Under the pieces are notes generated by a model that searched no databases, had not been told where the DNA came from, and saw nothing but the letters and a program-made list of their open reading frames with translations. Below, piece after piece: positions 3,951 through 24,071 of a stretch of DNA of 64,000 nucleotides. Where the stretch lies: the NCBI GenBank assembly GCA_020440645.1, contig JAGRNR010000009.1, forward strand, positions 5,092-69,091, given 5' to 3'. The translations under genes were made by a program, and so were the position numbers. This DNA comes from a bacterium. Lineage in GTDB: Bacteria > 4484-113 > JAFGCY01. Positions within the stretch are counted from its first letter, which is position 1. Every line of letters begins with the position of its first letter.

Positions 3951-4170
3951 GGGATGAAACCTAATGCGCATTTACACCCGCCATGGATGTTGATTTTCCC
4001 AACATTTAACTTCTGCCCCATCGCAAACCCGGAATTAACCGGTCTGATGAGAATGTAATGTGTCGAGCGCTGGTATGGTCTATTGGACCGTGTAACTCCC
4101 TTCCGGAGCTTTATCGCTAACAGGCATGCAATATGCCGTGGTGCTGATGCAACCTGCTCGTCAGGCTTGA

Positions 4171-4911: not shown

Positions 4912-4971
4912 TTTCCCACAGCCCAGCGTGCTTTGAAACAATCATGCCTGACTGGGATATGATTAATGAGA

Positions 4972-4999
4972 GGCAGGGACGGACCGCAGATCCCCTGCC
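4972..4999 (+). terminator. Stem-loop downstream of the 4171..4911 gene (ggcaggg, 14 nt, ccctgcc); no U-tract
   Basis: A 7-bp inverted repeat read directly from the sequence, 61 nt after the stop. Confidence 0.25.
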
Positions 5000-5020
5000 G
5001 GCGGGCCGGTCTGGGTAGGC

Positions 5021-6244: not shown

Positions 6245-6247
6245 GCC

Positions 6248-7495: not shown

Positions 7496-7511
7496 ATACC
7501 ACCCTGCTTGC

Positions 7512-8879
7512 CTAGCCGTCCCCGCTGTCCATTCCCGCCTCATTCTCTCCGCGGCTGGCCTGCTCCGGCGCACTGGGCCGCCTGAGCGGCTGGGGCAGGT
7601 CGGAGGATCCACCACGGCGTAGCTCCTGCGGGATGTCGGACGGTCCGTCCATCTTGTGCAGGTACAGCGACTGGCTCGGGAAGGCGAAGTCAACGCCGAT
7701 CTCGGCAAACAGGTCCATGATGCGCAGCATCAGGTCCTCGCGGATGATCAGGTAGTCCGCCCAGACAGCCGTATTGGCAAAGCAGTACACGAGGATATCC
7801 AGCGAGCTGGCACCGAAGTCGGTGAAGTGCACCAGATGGAAGCGCTGGTCGATGCCGCTGTGCTTTTCGATGATGTCGCGAATGCCATCCACGGCCTTGC
7901 GCAGCCTGGTGGCATCCGCGTCATAGGTGATGCCGATCGTCAGGTTGATGCGGCGCATGTCGCGCACGCTGAAGTTCTGGATGTTCTCGTTGGTGACGAT
8001 CTTGTTCGGCACGCTGACAACGGTCTTGTCAAAGCAGCGGATGCGCGTGGAGCGGATGCCGATCTCCTCCACGTCGCCCTCCACGCCGGCCATCTTGATC
8101 CAGTCCCCGCGCTTGAACGGGCGGTCCATGAAGATCATGAAGCTGCCGAAGATGTTGGCAACGGTGTCCTGCGCGGCGAAGGCCAGCGCCAGGCCGCCGA
8201 TGCCGACACCGGCCAGCACTGCGGTGATGTCCCCGCCCCAGCTCTGCACGCAGGTCAGGATCACCAGCAGGATGATCAGCACCTTGGCGGTGTCGCGGAT
8301 CATCGGGATGAACTGCCCGTCCAGTACGCTCGTGCTGTCCGGCCGCTCCTTCTGGCTCAGCCAGCTCAGCGCGACCTCGACGACGCGGAACAGGATCATG
8401 CCGACGTTGACGATCAGCCAGGTTGTCAGCAGCGACCACACGATCGCATTCGCGCGGCCGGGCAGGTCGATGAAGGCGAAGGCCAGGAACAGGCCCCAGA
8501 TCATCACGAAGGTGCCGATCTGCTTGCGCAGTGCGGCCAGGACCCGGTCGTCATACTTCGTCTCGGTACGTTCAACGATCGGCTTCAGGTAGCGGTCCAT
8601 CACCTTCTTCGCGATCTGGCTGATGAACAGTGCCAGCAGCAGGAAGAATGCCGCGGCCAGCAGCCCGAAGGCGTTGAGGCCGAAGACGGTGGTGTTGTTG
8701 AGCTGCCTGTAGGTGCTGGTCACGTTGGCGCCCAGCACGCGTTCTATCAGTTCGTTGGTCTTCTGGCGGGTTTCCTGGCGAGCGCTGTCCGAATCCGGCA
8801 CCAGCAGCGGTATCTGTGCCTGGCCCTCCTGCGAGTCCGCCTGTGCGTTGTCAGTGCTCTGCTGGAGAAGTAGGAGCAT
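7512..8879 (-). CDS. Mechanosensitive ion channel, MscS family
   Basis: IFGSFMIFMDRPFKRGDWIKMAGVEGDVEEIGIRSTRIRCFDKTVVSVPNKIV (MscS beta-domain). The track ORF extends to 9119 but overlaps deoC. The ATG at 8879 is preceded by a perfect TATAAT and a 6-nt spacer. Confidence 0.85.
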   Translation of the reverse strand: MLLLLQQSTDNAQADSQEGQAQIPLLVPDSDSARQETRQKTNELIERVLGANVTSTYRQLNNTTVFGLNAFGLLAAAFFLLLALFISQIAKKVMDRYLKPIVERTETKYDDRVLAALRKQIGTFVMIWGLFLAFAFIDLPGRANAIVWSLLTTWLIVNVGMILFRVVEVALSWLSQKERPDSTSVLDGQFIPMIRDTAKVLIILLVILTCVQSWGGDITAVLAGVGIGGLALAFAAQDTVANIFGSFMIFMDRPFKRGDWIKMAGVEGDVEEIGIRSTRIRCFDKTVVSVPNKIVTNENIQNFSVRDMRRINLTIGITYDADATRLRKAVDGIRDIIEKHSGIDQRFHLVHFTDFGASSLDILVYCFANTAVWADYLIIREDLMLRIMDLFAEIGVDFAFPSQSLYLHKMDGPSDIPQELRRGGSSDLPQPLRRPSAPEQASRGENEAGMDSGDG

Positions 8880-8885
8880 GCGGCC

Positions 8886-8891
8886 ATTATA
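8886..8891 (-). promoter_or_regulatory. -10 box TATAAT, 6 nt upstream of the mscS-family ATG at 8879 (leaderless configuration)
   Basis: The minus strand reads TATAAT ggccgc ATG. Confidence 0.55.
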
Positions 8892-8928
8892 CAGTCGGTA
8901 TTTCTGGCAGCGCTGCTGCGGCAGGCCA

Positions 8929-8934
8929 TACAAT
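8929..8934 (+). promoter_or_regulatory. -10 box TACAAT, 6 nt upstream of the deoC ATG at 8941 (leaderless configuration)
   Basis: The + strand reads TACAAT gtcaac ATG. It is divergent from the mscS promoter within a 61-bp intergenic region. Confidence 0.55.
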
Positions 8935-8940
8935 GTCAAC

Positions 8941-9612
8941 ATGTTCATGCGACCGCCCGCTGATGCTGCATTGCACACGAGGCTTGACCAGGCATTCCTC
9001 AAGGCCGACCCGGCTGCCACGGTGGAGGCCCTGCGTGCCCAGGTGGAATTGGCAACACGCCTGCAGCTGCGCAGCCTGTGCGTGCCGCCGCTGCTGGCCG
9101 GCACGGTGAAGAAGCACAACCCGCAGCTCAGGGTATCGACCGTGGTGGCCTATCCGCTCGGGCTGGAAAGCGCCAGCTGCAAGTACTTCTCGATCGAGGA
9201 ACTGATGGAGCAGGGCATTGACGAGTTCGACGTCGTGCTGGACCTGTTCGCGCTCGTGAATGGCAACATGGCGAAGCTGGCGGCCGAGGCCGGCAAGCTC
9301 GGCACGCTCTGCCGCCGCCAGCAGCGGATGCTGAAGGTGATCATCGAAACCCCGATCCTCAATGAGGCTCGCATCACTGAAGTGGTACACGTGCTGCGCG
9401 ATGCCCCGGTGGACTGCGTCAAGACCAGCACCGGCTACGGCCGCGATGCCACGAAAGTCGAACATGTGGAGCTGATCCGCCGGGAACTGGGCGACGACAG
9501 GCTCGTGAAATGCAGCGGCGGAGTGCGCAGCAGGGAGGATGCCCTGCGGATGGTGGATGCCGGTGCGGACATCATCGGCACCAGCAGCGCCGAGGCGATC
9601 CTCGCTTCCTAG
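8941..9612 (+). CDS. deoC: Deoxyribose-phosphate aldolase
   Basis: KVIIETPIL, VDCVKTSTGYG (Schiff-base Lys context), VKCSGGVRS and AGADIIGTSS. The track ORF starts at 8713, but homology begins at MFMRPP (8941). Confidence 0.9.
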   Translation: MFMRPPADAALHTRLDQAFLKADPAATVEALRAQVELATRLQLRSLCVPPLLAGTVKKHNPQLRVSTVVAYPLGLESASCKYFSIEELMEQGIDEFDVVLDLFALVNGNMAKLAAEAGKLGTLCRRQQRMLKVIIETPILNEARITEVVHVLRDAPVDCVKTSTGYGRDATKVEHVELIRRELGDDRLVKCSGGVRSREDALRMVDAGADIIGTSSAEAILAS

Positions 9613-10116: not shown

Positions 10117-11271
10117 TCAGACATTGTCCATGCCCACGGTGTTCCCGCCGCCCGGTCCAAGCGCATCCAGCCAGTCACAGAAAGCCTCCAGCTCCTGCAC
10201 GCTGATCTCATGGCCCCCATCAAAGCTGAAGCGGGTCACGGGGCAGCCCTGTTCCTCGAGGAAGTCCGCCAGCATCTCGCTTTCAGCCGGCTTCACGGCG
10301 CTGTCGCGCAGGCCATGCCCCGAGAACACCGGAAAATCGAGTTCGCGGCGCGGCAGTTCGTCATTCACCGCGAGCGTGGTGCTGAAGCAGGCCAGCGCGT
10401 CATACTGCCCGCTGCGGGTCAGGGCGCAGTAGCTCGCCAGCATCCCGCCCTGGCTGAAGCCGGCCAGCACCACAGGGCCGATGCGGAAATGCTCTCGCAT
10501 CCTGGCAACCACATTGCCGACGTACTCCGCATTCTGTTCGAGGTACTGCAGGCGCAGCTCATCGCTGAGGCTGCCCGGCCACCAGATGCGCGAGTCCTGG
10601 TGGTCGCTGAACACCGGGTAGGCCGCCGCCGGGGCCGCCATGATGTAGTCCCTGTGCGGCATCTGCTGGCGCCAGGCAGCGATGTTCTCCGGCGTACCGG
10701 TTGCCCCGTGCAGCATCACCACGAGCGTGTATTCGCGCTCGCTGTCAAAGTCTTCCGGCAGGAAGTAGCGCACGCTGCCCATGCTGCCCATCGGCACTAG
10801 CAGCGTCTCACCCATCTGCTCGCGGTAGCGCAGCTCACGGCTGCGCAGCACCTCGGCCGCCATCCGGAAGCTGTAGTCCTCGCGCACGTTGTCAAAGCGC
10901 GGGTCGTCAATCCGGGCACTGATGTTGCGCAGCCCGGCCTCCTGTGCGAGGCGCAGTGCATCCGATGCCAGGCTGGCCCGCCCGAGCTGGCCATAGCAGC
11001 CAGCCAGGCGCAGCAGCACCTCGAAATTCGAGGCATCGGACTGCAGGGCCGCGATGTAGCAGGCCGCAGCCTGTTCCAGTTCGCCCTGGTTCTCATGCTG
11101 CAGGCCCATCAGCACATAACTGGCCCGGTCGTTGTCCAGTACGGTGAGCGCATCCCCGGCCAGCGGGTCAATCTCATCCGGGCTCAGGTATTCCCACTGC
11201 GCGTGTGCCACCGACAGTGACAGCAGTGCGGCAAGCAGGGCCAGCATGGCAATCCGGTGGATCATCTTCAT
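10117..11271 (-). CDS. Secreted TPR plus alpha/beta hydrolase (phospholipase/carboxylesterase-like esterase)
   Basis: Signal MKMIHRIAMLALLAALLSLSVAHAQ, preceded by GGAGGAA directly before the ATG at 11271. TPR-like N-terminal half. Nucleophile elbow VLAGFSQGG and C-terminal GGHE. Confidence 0.8.
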   Translation of the reverse strand: MKMIHRIAMLALLAALLSLSVAHAQWEYLSPDEIDPLAGDALTVLDNDRASYVLMGLQHENQGELEQAAACYIAALQSDASNFEVLLRLAGCYGQLGRASLASDALRLAQEAGLRNISARIDDPRFDNVREDYSFRMAAEVLRSRELRYREQMGETLLVPMGSMGSVRYFLPEDFDSEREYTLVVMLHGATGTPENIAAWRQQMPHRDYIMAAPAAAYPVFSDHQDSRIWWPGSLSDELRLQYLEQNAEYVGNVVARMREHFRIGPVVLAGFSQGGMLASYCALTRSGQYDALACFSTTLAVNDELPRRELDFPVFSGHGLRDSAVKPAESEMLADFLEEQGCPVTRFSFDGGHEISVQELEAFCDWLDALGPGGGNTVGMDNV

Positions 11272-11311
11272 TTCCTCCACTCCCCCCTGGAGCATTATGA
11301 CAGCCGCAGCT

Positions 11312-12352
11312 TCAGTGGCGTGACCCGAGCTCTGACAGGATCTGCTTCAGGTCCGCCAGGCAACGCTGCTGCCCCGCCGGGCTGCGTCCGTCCACCTTGC
11401 GCACCAGGTCAAACCACGAGTAGGCCAGCACGTTGTCAGCCCCGGCATTGAAGCCGGCCTGCACCATCGCGCGCATCTGCTCGAGCGTCGGGAAGCTGGC
11501 GGAATTGCTGCCCTTGCCGTACATCCGCCAGTCGAAGCTCTGGAACACGAGGATCAGCGGCTGCGATGGCTTGCGCAGCTCATTGGCGCGGCGCACCAGT
11601 GCGTCCACCTCGTAGCTGATCGCCTCGATGCTGTGGCCATCATCCAGCCAATGCGCACCGACGGGGTAGCAGTCCACCATCACCCAGTCGCAGCAGTCGC
11701 GGATCATGCTGCGCATGCTCTGCTCGAACTGCTCATCATGCTGGAGGTAGTCCGGGGTGCCGTGCGGATAGTTGCGGCTATCAAAGCGCCGGTTCATCTC
11801 ATGGCGGTCCGGCAGCTGGTTCCAGACGCAGATCTGCGGCCGGTCGGGGTCGATGCGGCGGATGCTCTGGTACAGGTCGCGCATCTGCCCAAGCGACAGG
11901 CTGTATTTCTCCGTGCCGTCCACCCCGCTGAGCATCGGCAGGATCTCATCATGCACATACCAGGCCCCGATCTGCTCCTCGTTGCGCAGGGCCTCGACCT
12001 CAGCCAGCGCCCTGGCAACCTGTACGGAGGATGTGCGCGGGGTAGCACCTTCGAGGGCATTGAACAGGCTGTAGCCGATGCTGATCCCCTCGCGCCTGGC
12101 AATCGCCATGTAGGCATCGAAGTTGTCACGGTCGGCCGGGCCTTCCGGCCACTGCAGCGCGTAGTCAATCACGAAATTGACACCGCTGTCGGACAGCTCG
12201 CTGAACTGCTCGTTCACCTGAAGCAGGTTCCAGCAGCCCATCGAGATGTAACAGCCCACGAGCCGGTTGGGGTCTGGTGTGCTGTTGGCAGCCAGCGCCC
12301 TGCCACCGTTCAGGCAGGCGATCAGGATCAGGCTGGCCATCAGGGTCCTCAT
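11312..12352 (-). CDS. Secreted TIM-barrel glycoside-hydrolase-like protein
   Basis: Signal MRTLMASLILIACLNGGRALA. An alternating beta/alpha pattern with AWYVHDEI and LILVFQSFDW, resembling acid/base and nucleophile strands. The family is not assignable by eye. Confidence 0.55.
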   Translation of the reverse strand: MRTLMASLILIACLNGGRALAANSTPDPNRLVGCYISMGCWNLLQVNEQFSELSDSGVNFVIDYALQWPEGPADRDNFDAYMAIARREGISIGYSLFNALEGATPRTSSVQVARALAEVEALRNEEQIGAWYVHDEILPMLSGVDGTEKYSLSLGQMRDLYQSIRRIDPDRPQICVWNQLPDRHEMNRRFDSRNYPHGTPDYLQHDEQFEQSMRSMIRDCCDWVMVDCYPVGAHWLDDGHSIEAISYEVDALVRRANELRKPSQPLILVFQSFDWRMYGKGSNSASFPTLEQMRAMVQAGFNAGADNVLAYSWFDLVRKVDGRSPAGQQRCLADLKQILSELGSRH

Positions 12353-13452
12353 TGCTTTTGGTTGAGCTTGCGCATCACGACTTCAGTGGTGCCGGTCGGG
12401 ATGTTGGCAATCAGCATGTCGCCGCTGCGGCGCACAGAGCTGACCGGCTTGCCGTCGGCCAGCACCTCGGCCTGCTCCCAGTCAGCCGGGACGGCGCACT
12501 GCACGGAGATCACGTCCCAGTAGTTCTGGTAGTCCGGCAGCTGGCTGATCTTCGCAATCATGTAGTCCTTATCGAAATCAAGCAGTTCCAAGGTGAACTG
12601 CCGGCTCTCCAGCATGTAGCGGGCCACATTCCTGATCGGGGCCACCCAGACACGGTCCCCGAAAGATGCGAGGTACTCGTAATGTTCGACGAAGTCGTTG
12701 TAGGGGCGCGGACTCCAGCCCACACCGGGCTCGCCCGCCTCACCGATGCCGTGGCACTGCTCGATCATCCAGCCCTGCTTGCTGATGGCAAGGTCCGTCG
12801 TGCTGTTCCACATCCACATTGGCAGGATGTCCTGGTTGGCCCAGCTGTAGAGGTGCATCAGCGGCGGGTTGGCGGAGCAGTTGCGCTGGGCGATGTCCTC
12901 CCTCTCCTGCGGGCCACTGCGGGCGAACATGTATCCGAACTCAGCAGCGGTGTGGAAATTGCCGTAGTGGTACTGCTCATAGGGGTAGATCAGGGTATCC
13001 ACCTGGTCCAGGCCCTCGATGTTATCGAGCAGGAACCGGTGGCAGGTGCCGATCTCATCGCGCACCACTTCCTCGCTGCTTTCCGCCATGTTGAGGTGCG
13101 TCTTCGAATGGTTGGCGATCTCATGCCCATCGTCGAAGGCTTGCTGCAGCTGTTCCTTCCAGCCCTTGCGCTTGACGATGGTGGTGGAGACGATGCCGAG
13201 CGTGACCTTCCAGCCGTACTTGTCCCACAGCGGCATGCCCCGCTCCCAGTGGTCCAGCGAGCCGTCGTCGAAGGTCAGGCTGACCGCACCCTCCGCGCCG
13301 TTGTACCAGCGGCAGATTTCCGGCTTCGGGCGCCATCGCTCATCAGTCTGGGGCACCTGGTCCTTCTGCGGGATCACGATGATGTCTCCCTGGGCCAGCG
13401 CAGTGCCGCCCAGCAGCAGCATCAGCAGTAAAAGGGATAGTGTCTGTCTCAT
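12349..13452 (-). CDS. Polysaccharide deacetylase (CE4 / NodB domain), secreted
   Basis: VSLTFDDGSLDHW (TFDDG motif) and ANHSKTHLNM (His motif). Signal MRQTLSLLLLMLLLGGTALAQ. ATGA overlap with the downstream gene. Confidence 0.85.
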   Translation of the reverse strand: MRQTLSLLLLMLLLGGTALAQGDIIVIPQKDQVPQTDERWRPKPEICRWYNGAEGAVSLTFDDGSLDHWERGMPLWDKYGWKVTLGIVSTTIVKRKGWKEQLQQAFDDGHEIANHSKTHLNMAESSEEVVRDEIGTCHRFLLDNIEGLDQVDTLIYPYEQYHYGNFHTAAEFGYMFARSGPQEREDIAQRNCSANPPLMHLYSWANQDILPMWMWNSTTDLAISKQGWMIEQCHGIGEAGEPGVGWSPRPYNDFVEHYEYLASFGDRVWVAPIRNVARYMLESRQFTLELLDFDKDYMIAKISQLPDYQNYWDVISVQCAVPADWEQAEVLADGKPVSSVRRSGDMLIANIPTGTTEVVMRKLNQKQ

Positions 13453-13470
13453 AGGCGTTGTCGGCTGGAG

Positions 13471-13476
13471 ATTCTA
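13471..13476 (-). promoter_or_regulatory. Putative internal -10 box TAGAAT, 18 nt upstream of the deacetylase ATG at 13452
   Basis: The minus strand reads TAGAAT ctccagccgacaacgcct ATG. It sits immediately after the hairpin at 13480..13495. Confidence 0.35.
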
Positions 13477-13479
13477 CCC

Positions 13480-13495
13480 GCGGACAGCCGTCCGC
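13480..13495 (-). terminator. Short GC hairpin (gcggac agcc gtccgc) after the 13531..15027 gene; no U-tract
   Basis: A 6-bp stem with a 4-nt loop, read directly, 36 nt after the stop. Confidence 0.25.
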
Positions 13496-13530
13496 GCTTC
13501 AAATATGGATGGACTCGAAGCTAATTCCGT

Positions 13531-15027
13531 TCAGCGGAAGGGGTAAACAGGCACCTTGATCGGTGAGATCAGGTCGGCTTCCTTGCGCAGGATATTCGTC
13601 ACCACCGGGTAGGAACTGTGCCAGAACGGGAAACCGGTCGAACCCTGCACCTCTCGGCCGTAGAAGCTGCGGTTGATCTGCAGCGTAAGCTTGGTGTCCG
13701 CCGGGCCCATTGCCTTGCCGAACTCGGTCATCTCGCCTGCCATGTAGTAACTGTTGTAGTGGGTTTCCTTGCGCACGATGGCCGGGATTACCAGCGGCAG
13801 GTCGTGTCGGCGCATCTTGTCCTTGCCACTGTCGGTCAGCTTGAATTCGAAGTCCGCGAGGATCTGGACGGAAGGATCCGGACGAACGGTCACCACATCA
13901 AACCAGTAGGTGAAGGTGCTCGGGCGGCTGCCCTGCATCACGTCCATTTCCATGTAGTCGGTACGGGGCACGAACAACATGCCGCCCGGTGCCACGTCAT
14001 CCGCGTCCGTCAGCACGAAGAATTCGTCCTCGCCATCCTTGCACAGCAGGTAACCGGAGCCGGTCAGGTCCCAGTCCTTTCCATGCTTTTGCTTGTACAG
14101 CTCAAACAGCCACCAGGGCACATCAGTGACATCGCCGAAGTCCACGAAGTAACGACCGATCCAGTGGGTCCAGTCCACCCCGAAGATCTCTTCAAGCCGG
14201 TCCCGCAGTTCCTCATCCGTCGGGGATGCCAGGGTATTGAATTCAGCACAGATCGTGCGCCCACCCTGGTCGAGGAAGCCCTCGATTGCGGTGATCTCCT
14301 CAGGTTTCATGCCTCCGTAGATCTTCGGTGAGTAGATCGTATGTGCGATGTTATCGCCCCAATAGTCGCTGCGGAACTGCCAGTAGTCAGCGCTGTAGAC
14401 GCCATAGCTGTCACAGATGTAAAGCAGGTCACGGTCCGCAAGATCGGCGGAGTCGATGTAATCAAATCGCCAATGTACATCATTCTTGAGGCGGGCATCC
14501 TCCGCGGGATTGCTGCTGCTTGGCACCGGCCCGACGAAGTTCGGGTTGAATTCCTGCGAGAACATCGCGTTTTCCTGCTCAGGGGGCGCAAGGATCCTGT
14601 CATCCGGCGGCGGGTAGAAGCCGGTGTAGTCCAGGTCCTCCGCATAGAAGCGGTTGTCGGTCTGCTTGGTCGGGTCGACGAACTTGTTATTGGTCAGCAG
14701 CCAGAACAGGCCGCGGTGTTCGCGGTAGTCCTGGAACGGCACCGTCTTGTCCACGATCATCATCTTGAGCGGGATGTCCGGCGTACGCTCCCAGAACAGG
14801 TGCGGAATCAGCACGCAAAGGTAGATGATCAGCGCCAGGATCAGGATCGTGTGCAGGCGCCGGCTCGTGATGAAGGCCACAAGAAAGGGCTTCTTGCGCG
14901 GCTTGCCGATGCCTTCAGCTTCGCGCCGGTGGCGGGCCTTGCGGTCCGGCGGCGGCACGAGCGTGGCAGTGGCCGTTCCACCCGGCTGCTGCTCCTCCTG
15001 GTTGTCTCCCTTAATCAGGTCACTCAT
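13531..15027 (-). CDS. Single-pass membrane-anchored protein of unknown function (498 aa), partner of the GT2 synthase
   Basis: Basic N-terminus, one TM (LHTILILALIIYLCVLIPHLF), then a large Trp/Tyr/Asp-rich extracytoplasmic domain. No motif I recognise. A 23-nt gap separates it from the GT2 gene. Confidence 0.7.
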   Translation of the reverse strand: MSDLIKGDNQEEQQPGGTATATLVPPPDRKARHRREAEGIGKPRKKPFLVAFITSRRLHTILILALIIYLCVLIPHLFWERTPDIPLKMMIVDKTVPFQDYREHRGLFWLLTNNKFVDPTKQTDNRFYAEDLDYTGFYPPPDDRILAPPEQENAMFSQEFNPNFVGPVPSSSNPAEDARLKNDVHWRFDYIDSADLADRDLLYICDSYGVYSADYWQFRSDYWGDNIAHTIYSPKIYGGMKPEEITAIEGFLDQGGRTICAEFNTLASPTDEELRDRLEEIFGVDWTHWIGRYFVDFGDVTDVPWWLFELYKQKHGKDWDLTGSGYLLCKDGEDEFFVLTDADDVAPGGMLFVPRTDYMEMDVMQGSRPSTFTYWFDVVTVRPDPSVQILADFEFKLTDSGKDKMRRHDLPLVIPAIVRKETHYNSYYMAGEMTEFGKAMGPADTKLTLQINRSFYGREVQGSTGFPFWHSSYPVVTNILRKEADLISPIKVPVYPFR

Positions 15028-15050
15028 ATCCAGTCACTTGCTCCCGTGGA

Positions 15051-16490
15051 TCAGGATCCTGCGGTACGGAATCCACCGCGCCGGATCGCACCCCACAGCT
15101 TGCGGAAGCCGCCGAGGTACTCAAGCATGGCCTGCAGGCGCCAGATCGCATTGATCTGGCGGAAGCCGAAGTTGTACAGGAAGCCGCCCCAGAGCAGCTT
15201 GAACAGGTCGGATGTCCGCTGGTAGCGGTGGAAGCTGAGCTCCTCCACGAGCACCGTGATCACGGTGAACATGAAGCCCAGTGACATGCTCAGCAGGATG
15301 AACATCAGCATCCATTCCAGCGAGAGCACACCGGCCCACCAGAAGATCACGATCAGCACGTAGCCGAACAGCTCGACGATGCAGCCCAGCATCTCGAATA
15401 TAAGGTAATAGGGCATGCCGAACATGCCCAGTGCGCCGAAGCGCGGGTTGAACATCATTTCGCCGTTGTAGCGCAGGCTGTCCACCAGGCCCTTCTGCCA
15501 GCGGCGGCGCTGGCCGGCGAGGCTCTTCATGTCCTCCGGCACCTCGGTCCAGCAGACCGGGTCCGGGTTGAAGAACATCTTGAATTCCTGCCGCTTCTTC
15601 TTGAAGATGCGGTTGAGGCGCACCACCAGCTCCATGTCCTCGCCGATGGTGTCCTCGCGATAGCCGCCGACCTCGATCACGGACTCCTTGTGGAACATCC
15701 CGAAGGCACCGGAGATCAGCAGCACCACACCCATCTGGGCGAAGGCGATGCGGCTGGAGAGGAATGTCATCAGGTACTCGACCGTCTGGGCCAGTGCCAG
15801 CCAGTTGGTGGCGATGTTCACTTCCTTGACGCGGCCGTAGTCCACCACGCAGTTGTTCGCCACGCGGATCACACCGCCGACGGCGATCATCGTGTCCGGA
15901 TGCTCAATGAAGGGACGCATCGTCTTCAGCAGGGCGTCGGAGTCGAGGATCGAATCCGCGTCCAGCGTACAGAAGTAGGGGTACTGGCTGACGTTGATGC
16001 CCACGTTGAGCGCACTGCTCTTGCCGCCGTTGGGCTTGTCCACCACCACGAGGTTAGGGTGCATGCGGCTTTCGTAGATCGCCTTGACCGGCTCGGTCTC
16101 GATCTTGCGCTGGTAGATCTTGCTCACCGGCACGAGGTCGAAGGCCTCAATCAGCACCTGCATGGTGTTGTCCTTCGAGCCGTCGTTGACCACGATCACC
16201 TCGAACTGCGGGTAATGCAGGGTCAGGAGCGAGCGCACCGACTCCATGATCACCTTCTCCTCGTTGTAGGCGGGACAGAGGATGCTCACGGGCTTGGTCA
16301 GCGATGTCTTGAACAGGGCGTGCAGGTCCACCACATTCACATAGTGGCGGTAGCGGCCGAGGTTCATGATGCCGATCAGGAAGAATGCAATATACGAAAT
16401 GATCAGGCCGAGGGTGTACAGGATGAAGAACCCCGAGAGCCAGAGGATAACGATGATCGCATAGCTGTTATCAAGGTCATAGCCAAACAT
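15051..16490 (-). CDS. Processive family-2 glycosyltransferase (PgaC/IcaA/cellulose-synthase-like polysaccharide synthase)
   Basis: ILCPAYNEE, VVNDGSKD, CTLDADS, GAFGMF, GEDMEL and QRRRWQKG (the QxxRW processivity motif), with TM helices at both ends. Confidence 0.9.
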   Translation of the reverse strand: MFGYDLDNSYAIIVILWLSGFFILYTLGLIISYIAFFLIGIMNLGRYRHYVNVVDLHALFKTSLTKPVSILCPAYNEEKVIMESVRSLLTLHYPQFEVIVVNDGSKDNTMQVLIEAFDLVPVSKIYQRKIETEPVKAIYESRMHPNLVVVDKPNGGKSSALNVGINVSQYPYFCTLDADSILDSDALLKTMRPFIEHPDTMIAVGGVIRVANNCVVDYGRVKEVNIATNWLALAQTVEYLMTFLSSRIAFAQMGVVLLISGAFGMFHKESVIEVGGYREDTIGEDMELVVRLNRIFKKKRQEFKMFFNPDPVCWTEVPEDMKSLAGQRRRWQKGLVDSLRYNGEMMFNPRFGALGMFGMPYYLIFEMLGCIVELFGYVLIVIFWWAGVLSLEWMLMFILLSMSLGFMFTVITVLVEELSFHRYQRTSDLFKLLWGGFLYNFGFRQINAIWRLQAMLEYLGGFRKLWGAIRRGGFRTAGS

Positions 16491-17629
16491 CAGTTATCAC
16501 CCTCCGTGTCACGGCTTCCCGGCAGCTCCCGCTCCCGGCTCGGGGTGGCGGCGGATTCAAGCTGCTCTTCCCCGAAGAAGCGGCTGAGGTTACCGTTGGA
16601 CCGCTCGAGCTGGTAATTGGCCACATCCCTGGCGAAGTCATCATCATCACGCCGGGCCTGGTGCAGGATCTCACCACCTCTGCGTCCATAGGCCGCCAGT
16701 GACTGGGCTGCGTTGCGGCGTACCCAGTAGCTCGGGTCGGACAGCGCATCCCGCAGGATCGGCAGGCCGTCCTTGACCTGCATGGTGCCCAGTGCCTTGA
16801 CGGCCTGGGCCCGGATCTCCCAGGAACGGTCCTTGGAAAGCCGCAGGAACTCGGGGATGCTGCGCGGGGAGGCGATCTTGCCCATCGACTTGATGGTGCG
16901 GATCACCTTTTCCTTATGGGAAGAGCGCAGCACCTCATGCAGCTGGTCCACCAGCCGGTATTCCTGCAGGTCGCCGACAAGGTCAATCGCCATCAGCTTG
17001 GACTCAAGGGCGAAATCCTGGTGCTCCAGCATCTGCTTGAGGGGGACAATGGCCTGGCCGCGCATCTTCTGCACAATTTCCACCAGGCGGGTGGTTTCCA
17101 TCAGTTCGGGCCGGTTGAGGATGCTCAATAGAGCGGTGCCGGCCTCGGGCGTACCAATCATTCCCATGCTGCGCGCGGCGGTGAAGCGTACTTCCATCCG
17201 CTTGTCGCGCAGGTTGTTTGACAGGATCGGCACCGTTTCCTTGAGTCCGTAGATGCCAAGCTGCATCGCGGCGATGTCACGGATGCGCCAGTCCCAGTTA
17301 TTGAGACGGCGGGCGGTGCGGTTGAGCAGTTTCAGGCGGTCAGCGAGGGTCAGGAGCTTCTTGCGCTCCGAGCCTGTCAGCTGGCGCAGCATCCCGAGGA
17401 TCATCTCCTCAGCGAGGTCGACGTGGTTGCCGATGCTGGAGATCATTTCCTCAATGGAGCTGTCACCGCTGAGGTAACGGGCGAACACGGGCAGGAGCTC
17501 GGCGCGGCGGTTGCTGGCCCATGTGTTGTGGCTGGCCGACATCATCCGCTGAACGACGATGATCAGGAACAGCAGCGCTGAGTTGAGGAAAATTCCCGCA
17601 ACCAGATATTGCACGCTGTCAGCAAACAT
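16490..17629 (-). CDS. N-terminally TM-anchored HEAT-repeat protein
   Basis: N-terminal TM VAGIFLNSALLFLIIVV. Repeated pattern D..WR.R..AA..LG (IRDIAAMQLG, EVRFTAARSMG, EIRAQAVKALG, WVRRNAAQSLAA). A 1-nt overlap with the GT2 start. Confidence 0.8.
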   Translation of the reverse strand: MFADSVQYLVAGIFLNSALLFLIIVVQRMMSASHNTWASNRRAELLPVFARYLSGDSSIEEMISSIGNHVDLAEEMILGMLRQLTGSERKKLLTLADRLKLLNRTARRLNNWDWRIRDIAAMQLGIYGLKETVPILSNNLRDKRMEVRFTAARSMGMIGTPEAGTALLSILNRPELMETTRLVEIVQKMRGQAIVPLKQMLEHQDFALESKLMAIDLVGDLQEYRLVDQLHEVLRSSHKEKVIRTIKSMGKIASPRSIPEFLRLSKDRSWEIRAQAVKALGTMQVKDGLPILRDALSDPSYWVRRNAAQSLAAYGRRGGEILHQARRDDDDFARDVANYQLERSNGNLSRFFGEEQLESAATPSRERELPGSRDTEGDN

Positions 17630-17697
17630 TGGTTAACCCCGCTCCGATCCTTTCTTTTTCCGGGCGATGCCCCGCCCGTCACTCCAACATTAGTACG

Positions 17698-18111
17698 TCA
17701 GCCTGCCTGTGCAGTACCTCTGACATGCTTCAGGGCGTTGTACAGTCTCGCAATCAGCACGTTGATGCTGAACGGGATGGTGACGTAGTCGACGCATCCC
17801 AGCCGGAACGCATTGAGAATGTCATCCTCATCCTCCCGGGCGCTGATCACGATCATCGCCCCGGGTTCGTTGACCTTCTCACGCTGCTGGATCTCCCTCA
17901 TCACCTGAAATCCATCCAATTTCTGGATGAGGATATCTATCAACAACAGGTCAAAGGTTTCCCGCTCCATCTGGTCGAGCGCTTCAATGCCGTCAACGGC
18001 CCGACTGACCCTGAAGCCCTGCCGTTCCAGCTTGTATGACAGAATGCCAAACAGACTGTCATCCTCGAGTACGACAAGGATCTTCGGGTTGGAGACTGGG
18101 GTAGAATCCAT
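17698..18111 (-). CDS. Stand-alone response-regulator receiver domain, atypical (conserved Lys replaced by Ile)
   Basis: KILVVLEDD, DLLLIDILIQKLDG (phospho-acceptor Asp context), IVISA, then DYVTIPF where canonical receivers have KPF. The start is set at ATG 18111 because TAGAAT (18163..18158) lies inside the longer track ORF. Confidence 0.8.
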   Translation of the reverse strand: MDSTPVSNPKILVVLEDDSLFGILSYKLERQGFRVSRAVDGIEALDQMERETFDLLLIDILIQKLDGFQVMREIQQREKVNEPGAMIVISAREDEDDILNAFRLGCVDYVTIPFSINVLIARLYNALKHVRGTAQAG

Positions 18112-18157
18112 TCCCAAAATCACCTTTCGATAGTATGTGCCCTGATTTGAGCGACTG

Positions 18158-18163
18158 ATTCTA
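18158..18163 (-). promoter_or_regulatory. Putative -10 box TAGAAT, 46 nt upstream of the receiver gene
   Basis: The + strand reads attcta. It is followed by AAAGGTGA (SD-like) about 10 nt before the ATG at 18111. Confidence 0.4.
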
Positions 18164-18342
18164 CCACACACATATTTATATGTGAAACGATTTGATTGTA
18201 CATAATGTAATCTTAGTTTAACTAAAGTTTAATAATAGACAATATGAACAGTCAGTTTTCCCTGACTGTCAACACTAAGTGCAAGCACCTTGTTAATACA
18301 TGGTTTATCATTCTGGCAATACTCTGCTGCGCGGAGGAGCAC

Positions 18343-20775
18343 GTGTCTCACACAACCCGGAACTTGAAACTTGTCGCAATTGCGTTGACAATTTGCATGC
18401 TTGCTGCGACTGAATCTCAGGCAGCACCTGATGTGCCAACACGTGCCGGCGAGAACTTCCTCGAGATCCGCCAGCCGGATGGAAGCTACAAACCGATCTT
18501 CGTGAAGGGTATGAGCCTGTCTGCGGCACTTCCCGGCAAGCACCCCAGTGAATTCCCACACGACGAGCAACTCTTCCGGGACTGGCTGAAGAAACTGGCG
18601 GACATGAACTGCAATGTGATCCGCCTTTATACAATTCTGCCGCCCGAAGTCTATCGCGCCCTGCGCTACCACAACACCACCTATCCGGACCAGACCATCT
18701 GGCTGATCCAGGGCTGCTGGGTCACTCCGCCGACGGACCCCGACTACGATTTCTGGGGCCAGAAGTTCAACGATGAAGTTGAGCTGAACTCGCGCCATGC
18801 AGTAGACCTGGTCTATGGAAATGCGAACTTTGATGACAGGCCGGGCTGGACGGGCGGCCGCTATGACGCGGATGTGTCCCCCTGGCTGCTGGCCTGGCTG
18901 TGGGGCCGCGAGTGGGAACCCGATGACATCGAGCGCTTCCACGAGCTGACCAACCGCCGCGAGTACAAGGGCCGCTACATCAGCGCGATCGATAAGCAGC
19001 CGATTGACTGCTGGCTGGCCAAGATGTGCGATTACGCCGTTTCCTACGAAATGGACCAGTACAACAAGCAGCACCCGATCACCTACAGCTCATGGCCGGT
19101 GACTGACCCGATGGAGCATGTCAGCGAGAGCAAGCTGTCCGTCAACTCGGCCGAGAATGAGGGCCGCGTGGACATCTTCAGCAGTGACACGATCCAGATG
19201 ACCGTGAAGGACTTCACCGTCTCGCCGGACTTCAAGGCCGGTGTGTATGCCTCATACCATATTTATCCTTACTGGCCCGACTTCTTCGACAATGAGGTCG
19301 AGTACAGCCTGTGCAAGGACCGCTTCGGGGTCAGCAACTACTACGGTTACCTGACCCACCTGAAGGAGCATTACGGCACGATGCCGCTGCTGGTTGCCGA
19401 GTATGGCCTGCCCAATGGTCCGATGCCGGCGCACAAGCAGAAGCAGGGCCTGCACCACGGCGGCCACTCCGAGGAGGAAGTGATTGACGGCATGGAACGG
19501 CTGACCTATGACATCTGGGACAGCGGCTGCGCCGGTGCGATCGTGTTCGCCTGGATCGATGAGTGGTTCAAGAAGACCTGGATCTGGGCTGATTTCTATG
19601 ACCCCTGGGATGACCGCCGGCTTTGGTACAACCAGTATGACCCGGAGGAGAACTACGGCATGATCGCCCTGCTGCCCGGCGAGGGTGGCCCGAACAACAC
19701 GCTCAGCGGCAATGACGCTGAGTGGGAGGATGTCAGCGTCCTGCCCGGCGATTCGGTGGCCGTCGCTGACAACGCCCCGGTGATCACGAGCGTCAAGGCG
19801 ATGCATGATGAAGGCTGGTTCCACCTGCGCATCCGGCTGGACAACTTTGATGACTGGGACTTCGACAAGACGGAGCTGAGCATCGGTTACGACATCCTCG
19901 ACAGGCTGGGTGGCAACTTCGCCTGGCCCGGCCCGCTGAAGTTCCTCAGTGACAGCGGCCTGGAGACCGTAGTGCAGATCAAGAGCGGCCAGGCCTACAT
20001 GTACCAGACCGAGACCTGGCGCTTCTGGCGACCCTTCAATGATGAGGTGTCCAAGTCCATCTCGCTCGGTGAGGCCAAGCCGCACTACCTGCAGATGGAG
20101 GAGAACCGCTGGAGCTGGTTCGAGCCCTGGGTGGAAACCAACATCTACCGGCTCGGGCGTGACGGGACCTTCTTCCCGTCCCAGTCCTTCAAGCTCAACC
20201 CGCTGCCGCGCGGCACCCTGATCGAGGGCCAGCCGCGATACACCCAGCAGGCAATCTGGAACTCCGACCCCGATAGCAAGGTAGTGGAGATCCGCATGCC
20301 CTGGATCCTGCTCGGTTTCGTCGGCCCGCACCAGCGTCGCGTGTTGCAAAGCGATATCGACGAGCCCTCGAAGAATTCAAGTGTGGTGACTGATGGCATC
20401 GGCGTGGGACTGGCGATGTCCAGCGCGCGCGGTGATGCGCTTGCGGTCTGGCCCGGCATGGATGTCTATGACGCGGACGACCCAAACAGCATCCTCAGCT
20501 CACAGTTCGACGGCTGGAACCGCATCCTGACCAGCAAGAGCGGGATCTACACCTGGGACGAGTGGGGCGTGGAGGATATCCGGTACCACGGACGCATCAA
20601 GCCGATCTATTACGCGATGCGTGACCTGTTCGGAAGCATTGAACAGGTGCGACCACTTTGGAAGGATGGGCCGCAGCGCCAGCCGGTTCCGGATGGCACG
20701 GAGATGCCGGAGACGCCTCCGCTGGCTGAGCCCCTCAAGATCGACCACGCGGCGATCCTGCGCCAGCAGAACTGA
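18343..20775 (+). CDS. Secreted TIM-barrel glycoside-hydrolase-like protein (about 810 aa)
   Basis: GGAGGA at 18333..18338, then 4 nt, then the GTG at 18343, giving VSHTTRNLKLVAIALTICMLAATESQA (signal). The track start at 18244 adds 33 AT-rich, atypical codons. Motifs CNVIRLYTILPPEVY, LLVAEYGLPNG and FAWIDEWFKKTW resemble GH clan-A strands. Confidence 0.7.
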   Translation: MSHTTRNLKLVAIALTICMLAATESQAAPDVPTRAGENFLEIRQPDGSYKPIFVKGMSLSAALPGKHPSEFPHDEQLFRDWLKKLADMNCNVIRLYTILPPEVYRALRYHNTTYPDQTIWLIQGCWVTPPTDPDYDFWGQKFNDEVELNSRHAVDLVYGNANFDDRPGWTGGRYDADVSPWLLAWLWGREWEPDDIERFHELTNRREYKGRYISAIDKQPIDCWLAKMCDYAVSYEMDQYNKQHPITYSSWPVTDPMEHVSESKLSVNSAENEGRVDIFSSDTIQMTVKDFTVSPDFKAGVYASYHIYPYWPDFFDNEVEYSLCKDRFGVSNYYGYLTHLKEHYGTMPLLVAEYGLPNGPMPAHKQKQGLHHGGHSEEEVIDGMERLTYDIWDSGCAGAIVFAWIDEWFKKTWIWADFYDPWDDRRLWYNQYDPEENYGMIALLPGEGGPNNTLSGNDAEWEDVSVLPGDSVAVADNAPVITSVKAMHDEGWFHLRIRLDNFDDWDFDKTELSIGYDILDRLGGNFAWPGPLKFLSDSGLETVVQIKSGQAYMYQTETWRFWRPFNDEVSKSISLGEAKPHYLQMEENRWSWFEPWVETNIYRLGRDGTFFPSQSFKLNPLPRGTLIEGQPRYTQQAIWNSDPDSKVVEIRMPWILLGFVGPHQRRVLQSDIDEPSKNSSVVTDGIGVGLAMSSARGDALAVWPGMDVYDADDPNSILSSQFDGWNRILTSKSGIYTWDEWGVEDIRYHGRIKPIYYAMRDLFGSIEQVRPLWKDGPQRQPVPDGTEMPETPPLAEPLKIDHAAILRQQN

Positions 20776-21024: not shown

Positions 21025-21825
21025 GTGGAATCCACGGGATGGCTCACGGCAATGGATATTGCAAGCCTTGTAGGAGTGCTGATCTGCTTCGGCGGAGTGT
21101 TTGCAGGCTTCTCGATCGAGGGCGGGTCACCGACGCAGCTGATGGCTATCAGCGCTGCATGCATCGTGTTCGGCGGAGCCGGCGGGGCCACGATGGTGGC
21201 CTTCCCGCTGTCTACCTCGATCAACCTCTGGAAGGTGATCATGCAGTGCTTCATGCGCCCCAAGGTCGACCCGATCCCGGTGATCAAGAAGTTTGTCGAG
21301 TTCTCCGAGAAGGTGCGCCGCGAGGGCCTGCTTGTGCTGGAAGAGGATGCCAACAACGAAAGCGACCCCTTCCTGCGCAACGGCCTGCAGCTGGTGATCG
21401 ATGGCAATGACACCGAACTCGTGAAGGACATCCTGCATACGGACATCAAGTTCGTGGAGGAGCGCCACCACGTCGGCCAGGCCTACCTGCAGACGATGGC
21501 GGGCTTCACGCCGACCTTCGGGATCGTGGGCACCGTGATGGGCCTCGTGCTGGTGCTGTCAAACCTCTCCGACCCCGGCAGCCTCGGCCCGATGGTGGCG
21601 GCGGCATTCATCGCCACGCTCTATGGGGTGGGCAGTGCCAACGCCCTTTTCCTGCCATGGGCCTCCAAGCTGAAGATTGCCAGCAAGGAGGAGGTGCTCG
21701 TGCGCGAGATCATGGTGGAGGGCATCCTCTCGATCCAGGCCGGTGACAACCCGCGCATCGTGCAGGAGAAGCTCGCGGCATTCCTGCCGCCCAAGGAGCG
21801 TTCCCACGTCAAGCAGGAAGGCTGA
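21025..21825 (+). CDS. motA: Flagellar-type stator protein MotA (MotA/TolQ/ExbB channel family)
   Basis: TPTFGIVGTVMGLV and ATLYGVGSANALFLPWASKL (the two conserved Pro contexts). The cytoplasmic loop VRREGLLVLEED has an Arg and a Glu 8 residues apart, as in the FliG-contacting pair. An alternative start is the ATG at 21052 (MDIASLVG). Confidence 0.85.
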   Translation: MESTGWLTAMDIASLVGVLICFGGVFAGFSIEGGSPTQLMAISAACIVFGGAGGATMVAFPLSTSINLWKVIMQCFMRPKVDPIPVIKKFVEFSEKVRREGLLVLEEDANNESDPFLRNGLQLVIDGNDTELVKDILHTDIKFVEERHHVGQAYLQTMAGFTPTFGIVGTVMGLVLVLSNLSDPGSLGPMVAAAFIATLYGVGSANALFLPWASKLKIASKEEVLVREIMVEGILSIQAGDNPRIVQEKLAAFLPPKERSHVKQEG

Positions 21826-21851: not shown

Positions 21852-22784
21852 GTGTACATACCACAGGCACCACAAGGCAATGAAGGCGGCGATGAGCGCT
21901 GGCTGATCAGCTATGCTGACATGATCACGCTGCTCACCGTCGTGTTCATCATCCTGTTCTCGATGTCCAACATCGAGATGGAGAAGTTCAAGGCCCTCGC
22001 CGAGAGCATGACGGACGGCATGGGTGCCAACCGCAAGAGCACCACACTTGACCCCGAGCAGAGCATCGGGGAGGACGCCAGCACGACACCGATTGACATC
22101 GGCACGATCAGTGGCGGCGAGTCGCCCTCGATCCTGTTCCCCGAGCACCAGACCCCGATCCAGATCTTCCGCTTCCGCCGCATCATGGAGGGCGAGAACG
22201 GGGATGAGGGACTGCTGGAGAAGCTGCGCGACATCCTTGACAACGAAGCCCGCCGGGAAGGCGAGCAGATCATGCAGGAATTCGGGCACGACGAACGCGT
22301 CAGCATGCGCTTCACGGAACGCGGCATCGTGCTGACCTTCCTTGACGACCAGCTGATGTTCGACAGCGGCAGCGCCGACATGAAGCCGGGATTCCGTAAT
22401 GTGCTGGCAGCCCTCGGCTCGGAGCTGAACCGCCTGCCGAACTCGGTCGAGGTGCTGGGCCACACGGATGACCGGCCGATTGCCAGTGCCCGCTACCCCA
22501 GCAACTGGGAACTGTCAGCCGCACGCGCGGCAAGCGTTGCCAGGCTACTGATCGCCAATGGATTCCCGCGGGACAAGGTCAGCGTGGCCGGCTATGCCGA
22601 CACCCATCCGCTGGCGGGCAACGACAGCGTGCATGGGCGGGCCGCCAACCGCCGGGTGGAAATCGTGATCCTGCGGGGCTATAACGAACCGGCCGCGGAT
22701 GACACGGAGGAACCGGCCCAGCCGCTAGTCGGGCCACAGCCCAGCCCGGGCATGCCGGTGCACAGCCTGGGGGCGGGACACTGA
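21852..22784 (+). CDS. motB: Stator protein MotB with an OmpA-like peptidoglycan-binding domain
   Basis: AGGAG at 21841, then 6 nt, then the GTG at 21852. WLISYADMITLL (conserved channel Asp). GHTDDRPI...NWELSAARAASVARLL...NRRVEIVIL (OmpA-like). Confidence 0.9.
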   Translation: MYIPQAPQGNEGGDERWLISYADMITLLTVVFIILFSMSNIEMEKFKALAESMTDGMGANRKSTTLDPEQSIGEDASTTPIDIGTISGGESPSILFPEHQTPIQIFRFRRIMEGENGDEGLLEKLRDILDNEARREGEQIMQEFGHDERVSMRFTERGIVLTFLDDQLMFDSGSADMKPGFRNVLAALGSELNRLPNSVEVLGHTDDRPIASARYPSNWELSAARAASVARLLIANGFPRDKVSVAGYADTHPLAGNDSVHGRAANRRVEIVILRGYNEPAADDTEEPAQPLVGPQPSPGMPVHSLGAGH

Positions 22785-23165: not shown

Positions 23166-24071
23166 ATGGCTGACAATCAGGCAATTGACGTTGATGAGGT
23201 GCAGGAAAGCAAGCCTGCCAAGAAGGTCCGCAAGGCTGCGGGCGGAGGCGCAAAGCCGCCGCTGATGATGATCGTCTCACTGGCGGTCGCGGTGGCAGCC
23301 ATCGCCTTCAGCGCACTGCTGTTCATGCAGCTAAACGGGCTGAAGGCAAAGCTGGAGGACAGCGGCACACTGGCAGTGCCCGGCGAGGAGGATGCGATGC
23401 ACGCCGACGACGGGCATGGAGAGCACGGGGATTCCCCCGACAACTTCGTGATCCCGGCGGAGGGCGTGCTGTACGAGCTCGGCGAGTTCAAGACCAACAC
23501 CGCTGACAACGAGTTCGTGCAGATGAACGTGATCCTCGAGATTGACAGCCTCTACGACCGCCATGAATGGGAGGTCTACGAGGCGATGATGGAGAAGTAC
23601 GACAGCGGCGTGCAGCTCTACCGCAACTACCAACTCGGCCTTGACGAGGAGGGCAACCCGAAGGACGGGGGCAAGGGCGGACATGCCGCCCTGCCACCGG
23701 AGGATGTCCAGCAGTTGGACCCGGCGCCGGCCGATGGCCCGGTGGAGGTTGTCACTGCAGCGGCGGGCAGCACGGACGGGGTGGAGGTGGTGCCGGCGAT
23801 GCACGGCGCCCCGAAGGAGGCCCCGCCGCCGGAGATGCCGGAGCTGCCGGAGAAGCCGCGCTCGATCATGGAGATCCGCCTGATGGAGAATGAATCGCGC
23901 ATCCGTGACATGATCATCGACGAGATCGCGCGCACGGTGTCCGACGACTTCATCCGCCCGAGCGGCAAGGACCTGTTCAAGGACAACATCCGCATCAAGA
24001 TCAATGACATCATCGGCGAGCAGTACGGCCGGGTGACCGAGGTGCTGCTGCCCAACATCGTCAGTTCATAG
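23166..24071 (+). CDS. fliL: FliL-like stator-associated protein with a long acidic/Pro-rich insertion
   Basis: One TM (LMMIVSLAVAVAAIAFSALLF). FliL-like blocks YELGEFKTNTADNEFVQMNVILEI and ESRIRDMIIDEIARTVSDDFIRPSGKDLFKDNIRIKINDII...VTEVLLPNIV are split by roughly 100 extra residues. Confidence 0.65.
   Translation: MADNQAIDVDEVQESKPAKKVRKAAGGGAKPPLMMIVSLAVAVAAIAFSALLFMQLNGLKAKLEDSGTLAVPGEEDAMHADDGHGEHGDSPDNFVIPAEGVLYELGEFKTNTADNEFVQMNVILEIDSLYDRHEWEVYEAMMEKYDSGVQLYRNYQLGLDEEGNPKDGGKGGHAALPPEDVQQLDPAPADGPVEVVTAAAGSTDGVEVVPAMHGAPKEAPPPEMPELPEKPRSIMEIRLMENESRIRDMIIDEIARTVSDDFIRPSGKDLFKDNIRIKINDIIGEQYGRVTEVLLPNIVSS

Follow-up and report, generated by a model that had tools for sequence, protein, structure and literature searches.

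Synthase-dependent exopolysaccharides (cellulose, poly-N-acetylglucosamine (PNAG), Pel and alginate) are central to biofilm biology, and to our knowledge all well-studied systems of this type are gated by cyclic di-GMP (c-di-GMP). Here we describe an eight-gene locus at positions 10,117 to 20,775 of a 64-kb stretch of bacterial DNA (contig JAGRNR010000009.1, 64,000 nucleotides (nt), hereafter the window), which we judge likely to encode a synthase-dependent exopolysaccharide machine of an uncharacterised, widespread family, controlled by a HEAT-repeat protein and a CheY-like receiver. A first-pass annotation had seen in the same DNA a PNAG-type system, in which a PgaC/IcaA-like glycosyltransferase family 2 (GT2) synthase and a carbohydrate esterase family 4 (CE4) deacetylase are joined by non-canonical partners. 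The eight genes and the domains ascribed to them were all recovered by open reading frame (ORF) analysis and by Pfam and NCBIfam scans:

17698..18111, minus strand: stand-alone CheY-like receiver, 137 amino acids (aa) from the ATG at 18111; the ORF reaches a GTG at 18171
16490..17629, minus strand: membrane-anchored HEAT-repeat protein (Pfam HEAT_2 6e-32, HEAT_PBS 6e-17)
15051..16490, minus strand: GT2 synthase, a predicted processive-type membrane enzyme (Glycos_transf_2 9e-24; PgaC_IcaA best NCBIfam match)
13531..15027, minus strand: 498-aa single-pass membrane protein, no Pfam or NCBIfam match
12349..13452, minus strand: secreted CE4 esterase/deacetylase (Polysacc_deac_1, PF01522, 6e-17)
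11312..12352, minus strand: secreted 346-aa protein, no Pfam or NCBIfam match
10117..11295, minus strand: secreted tetratricopeptide repeat (TPR) plus alpha/beta-hydrolase esterase (Abhydrolase_2 1.8e-15, Esterase, weak TPR families)
18244..20775, plus strand: divergent, secreted 843-aa protein, assigned to glycoside hydrolase clan GH-A by fold comparison, with a TIM barrel at about residues 65-480 followed by a beta-rich C-terminal region

The HEAT stop and the GT2 start have base 16490 in common and the CE4 and 346-aa genes overlap by 4 nt (12349-12352), as previously annotated; the intra-operon gaps are 68, 0, 23, 78, 0 and 16 nt. The divergent hydrolase-like gene lies on the plus strand, and its ORF encodes 843 aa. 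Hydropathy revealed signal-like N-termini on the CE4, 346-aa, TPR-esterase and 843-aa proteins, in agreement with the secreted status given to these four, and like the 498- and 346-aa proteins the 843-aa protein matched no Pfam or NCBIfam model.

Comparison with described synthase systems

The nearest named family of the synthase is PgaC/IcaA. As in Pga and Ica, the synthase is a membrane GT2 with DxD, GED and QxxRW motifs and both N- and C-terminal transmembrane (TM) clusters, a secreted CE4 follows it in this genome, and both synthesis and export would depend on the synthase itself. The motifs named in the first-pass annotation (D177xD179, G283-E284-D285 and Q327-R328-x-R330-W331) are present and invariant across 19 family members, and hydropathy places the hydrophobic clusters at residues 6-30 and 364-415. 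Positions 14-413 of the family profile align to residues 41-426 of hyaluronan synthase 7sp6 (E 1.9e-9) and the profile also matches BcsA in part, which argues for a place in the membrane-embedded processive class; the protein does not cluster with non-processive GT2s. It is thus predicted to be a membrane-integrated, processive-type synthase that would make and translocate a polymer.

The distance to PgaC and IcaA is nevertheless large. The score against the PgaC_IcaA equivalog model TIGR03937 is 141.8 bits (2.8e-41), one third of the curated cut-off of 422.3 bits, and core identity is 24% to E. coli PgaC and 26% to staphylococcal IcaA (21% to NodC, 18% to NfrB and 16% to BcsA), compared with 37-90% to relatives with a HEAT neighbour. 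Named plasmid matches are PgaC/IcaA, Chitin_synth_2 matches above the Pfam cut-off, and the other Pfam GT2 models are generic. A phylogeny against reference synthases (neighbour joining, 442 columns) groups the HEAT-linked GT2s in a clade with 77% bootstrap, beside a separate PgaC plus IcaA group with 89%. It should be noted that this is a simple method with few references; the NodC reference on pSymA was located by phmmer, and NfrB was left out since its saturated branch distorted earlier trees. The C-terminal cytoplasmic tail (ENFGYRQ...WG.M.R.GF) is conserved in the family and lacking in PgaC and IcaA. The term PgaC/IcaA-like therefore stands for the nearest named family but not for membership, and judged from sequence the GT2 belongs to a related but distinct family. 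At E<=1e-80 this family comprises at least 5626 clusters, every one generically named, and it ranges over Bacillota, Bacteroidota, Chloroflexota, Gemmatimonadota, Acidobacteriota, Proteobacteria and haloarchaea. A 1116-aa protein on a Bacillus mycoides plasmid (L093, 3763-7113) matches both the window CE4 (weakly) and the GT2 (30% core identity); this fused deacetylase-synthase falls outside the HEAT-linked clade.

Within the eight proteins, the reported lack of Pga/Ica partners, of c-di-GMP modules and of a porin was upheld. The 0-78-nt operon gaps leave no room for a small PgaD/IcaD co-subunit and no such family is present among the eight proteins; these also include no PgaA-type porin, and the window as a whole holds no homologue of the TPR/YaiO beta-barrels found in relatives. 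PilZ, GGDEF and EAL domains and the MshEN receptor were absent from the eight proteins, and no GGDEF homologue was detected elsewhere in the window. The locus thus differs from Pga/Ica in having no PgaA porin, GH153 domain or c-di-GMP input, and in a CE4 that is not conserved in the family. Of the non-canonical partners proposed in place of the Pga/Ica parts, the HEAT and 498-aa proteins co-occur with the GT2; the phospho-relay input seems doubtful in this genome.

The BcsA-BcsB-BcsZ system offers another parallel, as it likewise comprises a processive GT2, a TM-anchored extracytoplasmic alpha/beta partner and a secreted endo-glycanase, and diderm relatives of the window locus add a TPR/beta-barrel protein in likeness to BcsC. 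The differences lie in the low core identity to BcsA and in regulation, which in Bcs acts through a C-terminal PilZ domain and c-di-GMP and here would involve a receiver and a HEAT protein. Further, the partner is here GATase1-like without sequence similarity to the BcsB Pfam family, and the glycanase is of clan GH-A and not GH8.

Two other systems bear comparison with the locus. The ydaJKLMN genes of Bacillus subtilis are a c-di-GMP- and YdaK-dependent exopolysaccharide operon, in which membrane-bound YdaK is needed for activity (PMC5422440). Like our locus, this Firmicute synthase-type operon combines a GT2 and a hydrolase with large proteins whose function is unknown and with a regulator bound to the membrane (PMC5422440), but the regulator is a degenerate-GGDEF c-di-GMP receptor and not HEAT plus receiver; YdaL and YdaN were compared by description only. 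In Halobacterium a HEAT_PBS protein (OE2401F) interacts with CheY, so that a single-domain receiver and a HEAT/PBS-lyase-type protein together control a membrane machine (PMC2666748). That protein differs in being soluble and in acting on the archaellum switch with no glycosyltransferase involved, so that the precedent extends to the contact alone.

The conserved triad and its predicted extracytoplasmic partners

A pattern for the 498-aa family matched 503 species genomes, and the 80 best loci were scanned by phmmer with the window proteins. The GT2 was found in 67 of these loci, the HEAT protein in 64, the 843-aa protein in 58 and the receiver in 53, while the 346-aa protein was found in two and the CE4 and the esterase in one each. 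The HEAT gene adjoins the GT2 gene in 64 of the 67 loci; in relatives examined singly the two genes overlap by 1, 4 or 8 nt. Eight neighbourhoods were sampled through the GT2 or examined singly, independent of the 498-aa protein (Fictibacillus, Niabella, a Haloarcula plasmid, an Erythrobacter plasmid, a Dehalococcoidales metagenome-assembled genome (MAG) and three further MAGs or contigs), and all eight carry receiver-HEAT-GT2. These three genes are an invariant core triad, present in Bacillota, Bacteroidota, Chloroflexota, Alphaproteobacteria and one haloarchaeon. The suggested co-occurrence of the HEAT and 498-aa genes with this GT2 clade holds, and the divergent 843-aa gene is a conserved partner as well. 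Synteny is consequently retained for five genes (receiver, HEAT, GT2, 498-aa and 843-aa) but not for the CE4, 346-aa and TPR-esterase genes. The earlier reading as a synthase-dependent polysaccharide locus is supported.

Several of the partners are joined in single polypeptides. The 498- and 843-aa proteins are fused in 51 of the 80 loci, giving in Bacillaceae (among them Priestia megaterium, Neobacillus and Metabacillus) a protein of ~1080 aa encoded right after the GT2, and one metagenomic protein is a GT2::498-aa fusion. A third fusion joins the GT2 of locus L095 (7001-8728) to a C-terminal Hpt domain with a GHKMKG motif; the same operon encodes a dCache-PAS histidine kinase, three receivers, a TPR+YaiO barrel and a HEAT protein. 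These fusions of GT2::498-aa, 498-aa::843-aa and GT2::Hpt type imply that the parts are physically tied.

The 498-aa protein has one N-terminal TM helix by hydropathy, and its globular domain takes a GATase1/ThuA-like (GIFT-like) alpha/beta fold in models. Single-sequence and profile searches of the PDB were uninformative for the 498-, 346- and 843-aa proteins, and the 498- and 843-aa proteins owe their classification to fold comparison alone. No Pfam coverage, the BcsB family included, was found for the 498-aa family. Among 52 members there is no invariant or near-invariant Cys, and the protein accordingly lacks the amidotransferase Cys-His-Glu triad. We predict that the globular domain lies outside the cytoplasmic membrane, and propose the protein as a synthase-associated, polymer-handling subunit. 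It is 98% identical to its counterpart in CP060262.1 (MAG: Planctomycetales bacterium isolate HK-STAS-UBP7_A-1). For the homologues in Acidobacteriota, Sericytochromatia and Methanofastidiosa/Thermococci-type archaea, neither a GT2 nor a HEAT or GH-A gene lies within 10 kb (unlinked loci L010, L016, L017, L019, L023, L027, L034, L036, L048, L031, L045 and L058), and their neighbours are unrelated genes (S9 peptidase, MMPL, pyridoxal phosphate (PLP) enzyme, sulfate symporter). In Niabella drilacis (L002, 6648-9987) a 688-aa Sulfatase-family protein (PF00884) and a TPR+YaiO beta-barrel are encoded between the GT2 and the 498-aa homologue; the former might modify the polymer as a transferase and the latter export it across the outer membrane.

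In model and fold comparison the 843-aa protein forms a (beta/alpha)8 barrel in which strands 4 and 7 each end in a conserved Glu, a likeness to GH157, GH158, GH2, GH5 and GH72, and both catalytic Glu are invariant in the family. From the models it is a clan GH-A glycosidase or transglycosylase by prediction, and a core partner of the synthase. The family gave no Pfam or PDB profile match and no membership of a GH family at sequence level.

Receiver, HEAT protein and the proposed switch

By hydropathy the HEAT protein has a single TM helix close to its N-terminus, at residues 8-26. The helix is found in 12 of 12 homologues from bacteria and archaea, followed by K/R residues in 11 of them, which places the HEAT repeats in the cytoplasm; the solenoid is thus predicted on the cytoplasmic side of the membrane, and we propose it as a regulatory subunit or adaptor of the synthase.

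The receiver (Pfam Response_reg, PF00072, 1e-18) had been called atypical, and alignment with CheY agrees: the phosphorylation site is degenerate, with the equivalents of D57 and T87 (as Ser) kept and D12, D13 and K109 replaced by Leu, Glu and Ile. The same replacements occur in a close relative of the window locus (L005, 498-aa protein 68% identical); the receivers of L008, L009, Niabella, Haloarcula and Erythrobacter are canonical. The degenerate receiver probably acts without canonical phosphorylation. In Bacillaceae relatives the triad stands beside a Hpt-REC-GGDEF(GGEEF)-REC protein, whose last receiver (REC) domain corresponds to the window receiver, together with a further REC protein and a hybrid histidine kinase. 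The Haloarcula triad is accompanied by a GAF histidine kinase, and that of L098 by a GAF-PAS hybrid kinase. The phospho-relay input that had been assumed thus fits the family, which has kinases, Hpt domains and canonical receivers, but may not apply in this genome, with its degenerate receiver and no adjacent kinase.

In the mechanism we propose, the GT2 would polymerise a sugar nucleotide and translocate the chain across the cytoplasmic membrane. The HEAT protein, translationally coupled to the GT2, would most likely bind the synthase, perhaps via the family-specific C-terminal tail, and would dock the CheY-like receiver, by which a phosphorelay could switch polymer synthesis post-translationally, assuming the part that c-di-GMP receptors play in Bcs, Pga, Pel and Alg. 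The 498-aa protein would sit at the synthase exit in a BcsB-like role and pass the chain to the 843-aa GH-A enzyme, which may trim, release or transglycosylate it (a BcsZ- or PelA-like role). This lineage (candidate group UBP7) would have added three secreted tailoring enzymes, the CE4 de-acetylase, the 346-aa protein and the TPR-esterase. The product is possibly a beta-linked homopolymer or simple polymer, possibly with hexosamine. More tentatively, and with chances we place somewhat below even, we speculate that REC-HEAT-GT2 is an unrecognised major class of synthase-dependent polysaccharide secretion, spread over thousands of lineages of bacteria and archaea, in which a receiver gates the GT2 directly by phosphorylation through a HEAT adaptor (in some lineages a GT2-fused Hpt), the 498- and 843-aa families being new extracytoplasmic subunits. 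No description of the REC/HEAT/GT2 combination was found in the full-text literature, subscription-only papers being outside the scope of the search. If true, the mechanism would be a new on/off switch for polymer secretion and a phosphorelay counterpart of c-di-GMP gating, and would assign functions to three protein families without Pfam coverage; Priestia megaterium, Neobacillus and Metabacillus are cultivable, genetically tractable carriers.

Several observations weigh against this scheme. All physical contacts (GT2-HEAT-REC, GT2-498-aa) are proposed on the grounds of synteny, gene overlaps and fusions. The 498- and 843-aa genes are absent in four of four GT2-sampled loci, which makes their products frequent but not obligate partners, and no GT2 lies within 10 kb of the 498-aa gene in Acidobacteriota, Sericytochromatia and some archaea. 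The family of the 498-aa protein has many invariant polar residues (H104, D206, E262, N264 and R292), and the protein may act as an enzyme instead of guiding the chain passively. As to control, of the five conserved residues of the phosphorylation site the window receiver lacks two (the D12 and K109 equivalents), and no kinase adjoins the locus; apart from the receiver, the one two-component protein detected in the window is a hybrid histidine kinase with a receiver domain (38845-40836, plus strand), ~20 kb off. Phospho-control may hence be inoperative in this locus. Finally, the first gene of the Bacillaceae loci holds an intact GGDEF domain, and c-di-GMP may still be the proximate signal there.

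Polymer identity, accessory enzymes and flanking DNA

The CE4 metal and catalytic motifs T60-F-D-D63 and H115-S-K-T-H119 are intact in the translation. Against PgaB only motif 1 aligns and there is no GH153-like part, so from the alignment the enzyme does not look PgaB-like; its best PDB matches are acetyl-xylan-esterase CE4s, weak at E about 3e-4. The CE4 gene occurs in the window and L007 only, an esterase homologue at the same position in L005 and L007 only, and the 346-aa gene in L005, L007 and L009 only; L005 thus has the 346-aa and esterase genes without CE4. By this distribution the CE4, 346-aa protein and TPR-esterase are lineage-specific accessories.

The 346-aa family is rare (53 clusters at E<1e-3 among 1.84 billion representatives) and has an invariant HDE motif. 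Alone, the protein matched nothing in Pfam or the PDB. A profile including distant members matched GH158 (1.9e-10) and, weakly, GH2/GH5/GH42, but the GH158 match vanishes with a close-family profile, leaving a weak link. The description as a TIM-barrel hydrolase-like protein is hence plausible through the distant members, though lacking a direct match, and the protein is probably a clan GH-A-like TIM barrel. Among characterised families, the hydrolase-like proteins come closest to GH157 and GH158, both made up of beta-1,3-glucanases, and not to GH153 or GH20. The idea that the 346- and 843-aa proteins are paralogues was dropped, as BLASTP and hhalign gave no significant similarity. A substrate-assisted hexosaminidase (HDE; Gln at the possible strand-7 nucleophile) was considered for the 346-aa protein and is not claimed. 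Its N-terminus (…SLILIAC…) resembles a lipobox, which is not kept in all relatives.

A functional PNAG system would have the GT2 making beta-1,6-linked N-acetylglucosamine (GlcNAc), the CE4 partly N-deacetylating it and the GH-like proteins acting as PNAG hydrolases, with only the accessory proteins differing from Pga/Ica. The GT2 does have PgaC_IcaA as its best NCBIfam model, is closer in identity to PgaC and IcaA than to NodC or BcsA and finds PgaC/IcaA among the plasmid matches; the Chitin_synth_2 match and an operon CE4 with intact TFDD and HSKTH motifs agree with this. These points are outweighed in our view by the score at one third of the equivalog cut-off and the separate clade, and by a CE4 that is missing from all relatives outside this genome lineage (L005 included) and does not look PgaB/IcaB-like, its best solved relatives being O-acetyl esterases. 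The 346-aa profile also shows no similarity to staphylococcal GH20 or E. coli PgaB. We therefore find a PNAG system unlikely; the PNAG-type logic, with a GT2 at 141.8 against 422.3 bits and a CE4 in one of 80 loci, was not supported, and the label PNAG locus would be a mis-annotation of the window. An improbability of the same order attaches, in our estimate, to a beta-glucan (beta-1,3 or mixed-linkage, possibly O-acetylated) processed by the GH-A pair as glucanase or transglycosylase, with the CE4 and esterase removing O-acetyl groups. The 843- and 346-aa proteins do point to beta-1,3-glucanase families and the solved CE4 relatives to O-acetyl esterases, but the ranking within the GH-A fold is a poor guide to specificity (19% identity, with GH2 and GH5 mannanases scoring nearly as high) and the GH158 link rests on distant members. 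Further, the GT2 stands closer to synthases that transfer GlcNAc than to BcsA, and the locus has no acetyltransferase.

The GT2 might also be no exopolysaccharide synthase at all, but a non-processive or lipid-directed enzyme (for a glycolipid, a cell-wall glycopolymer or protein glycosylation) beside secreted enzymes of nutritional use. Generic Pfam GT2 models and the many triad loci without any secreted partner would fit such an enzyme; invariant QxxRW, GED and DxD motifs with 2+3-type TM clusters, and a profile match to hyaluronan synthase from end to end with the membrane part included, would not. Nor would it explain the one fusion of the GT2 to the 498-aa partner predicted outside the membrane, or the TPR and YaiO beta-barrel genes inside the operon of diderm relatives, and we hold this option to be very improbable. 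The reading that we prefer remains a HEAT/receiver-controlled exopolysaccharide synthase.

Two minor sequence elements were considered in addition:

13480..13495, minus strand: 6-bp GC hairpin located in the 78 nt that separate the 498-aa gene from CE4, followed by TAGAAT at 13471-13476
18158..18186, minus strand: promoter-like site, TTCACA-17-TAGAAT and a TG, with 10 of 12 matches in a consensus scan

The hairpin and its adjacent TAGAAT, both pointed out earlier, exist as sequence but have no demonstrable function. The hairpin has no U-tract, the terminator scan gave no call, and the intergenic fold around it is unremarkable (z = -1.13; 25 of 200 shuffles fold equally well). We therefore rejected it as a terminator or attenuator. 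The segment is missing in L005, a relative without CE4. The promoter-like site lies in the AT-rich divergent intergenic region and is a candidate operon promoter; the scan is a consensus match only, 3 such sites having been detected where 2.7 are expected. The placement of the site points to the ATG at 18111 as the start of the receiver, and this ATG is likely the true one.

G+C is 0.56-0.57 at window positions 18001-20000 and 58001-60000 and about 0.60-0.67 elsewhere in the window; the former dip spans the divergent intergenic region and the GH-A gene. Downstream (3') of this gene on the same strand (plus) follow MotA (21025-21825), MotB (21852-22784) and a FliL-like gene (23166-24071), an order that is identical in L005 (1014-4021). 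In Erythrobacter aureus (L091, 15539-17233) REC-TPR-HEAT-GT2 lies within a flagellar cluster, adjoining MotAB and a PilZ protein. From the MotAB adjacency we speculate that the stator or motility may be linked to polymer synthesis. The left flank (1628-9119) encodes a 797-aa ankyrin-repeat protein (1628-4021, minus strand), two MacB/FtsX-type permeases (5021-7495, plus strand) and an MscS-family channel (7512-9119, minus strand), and the permeases and the channel are also found near the locus in L005.

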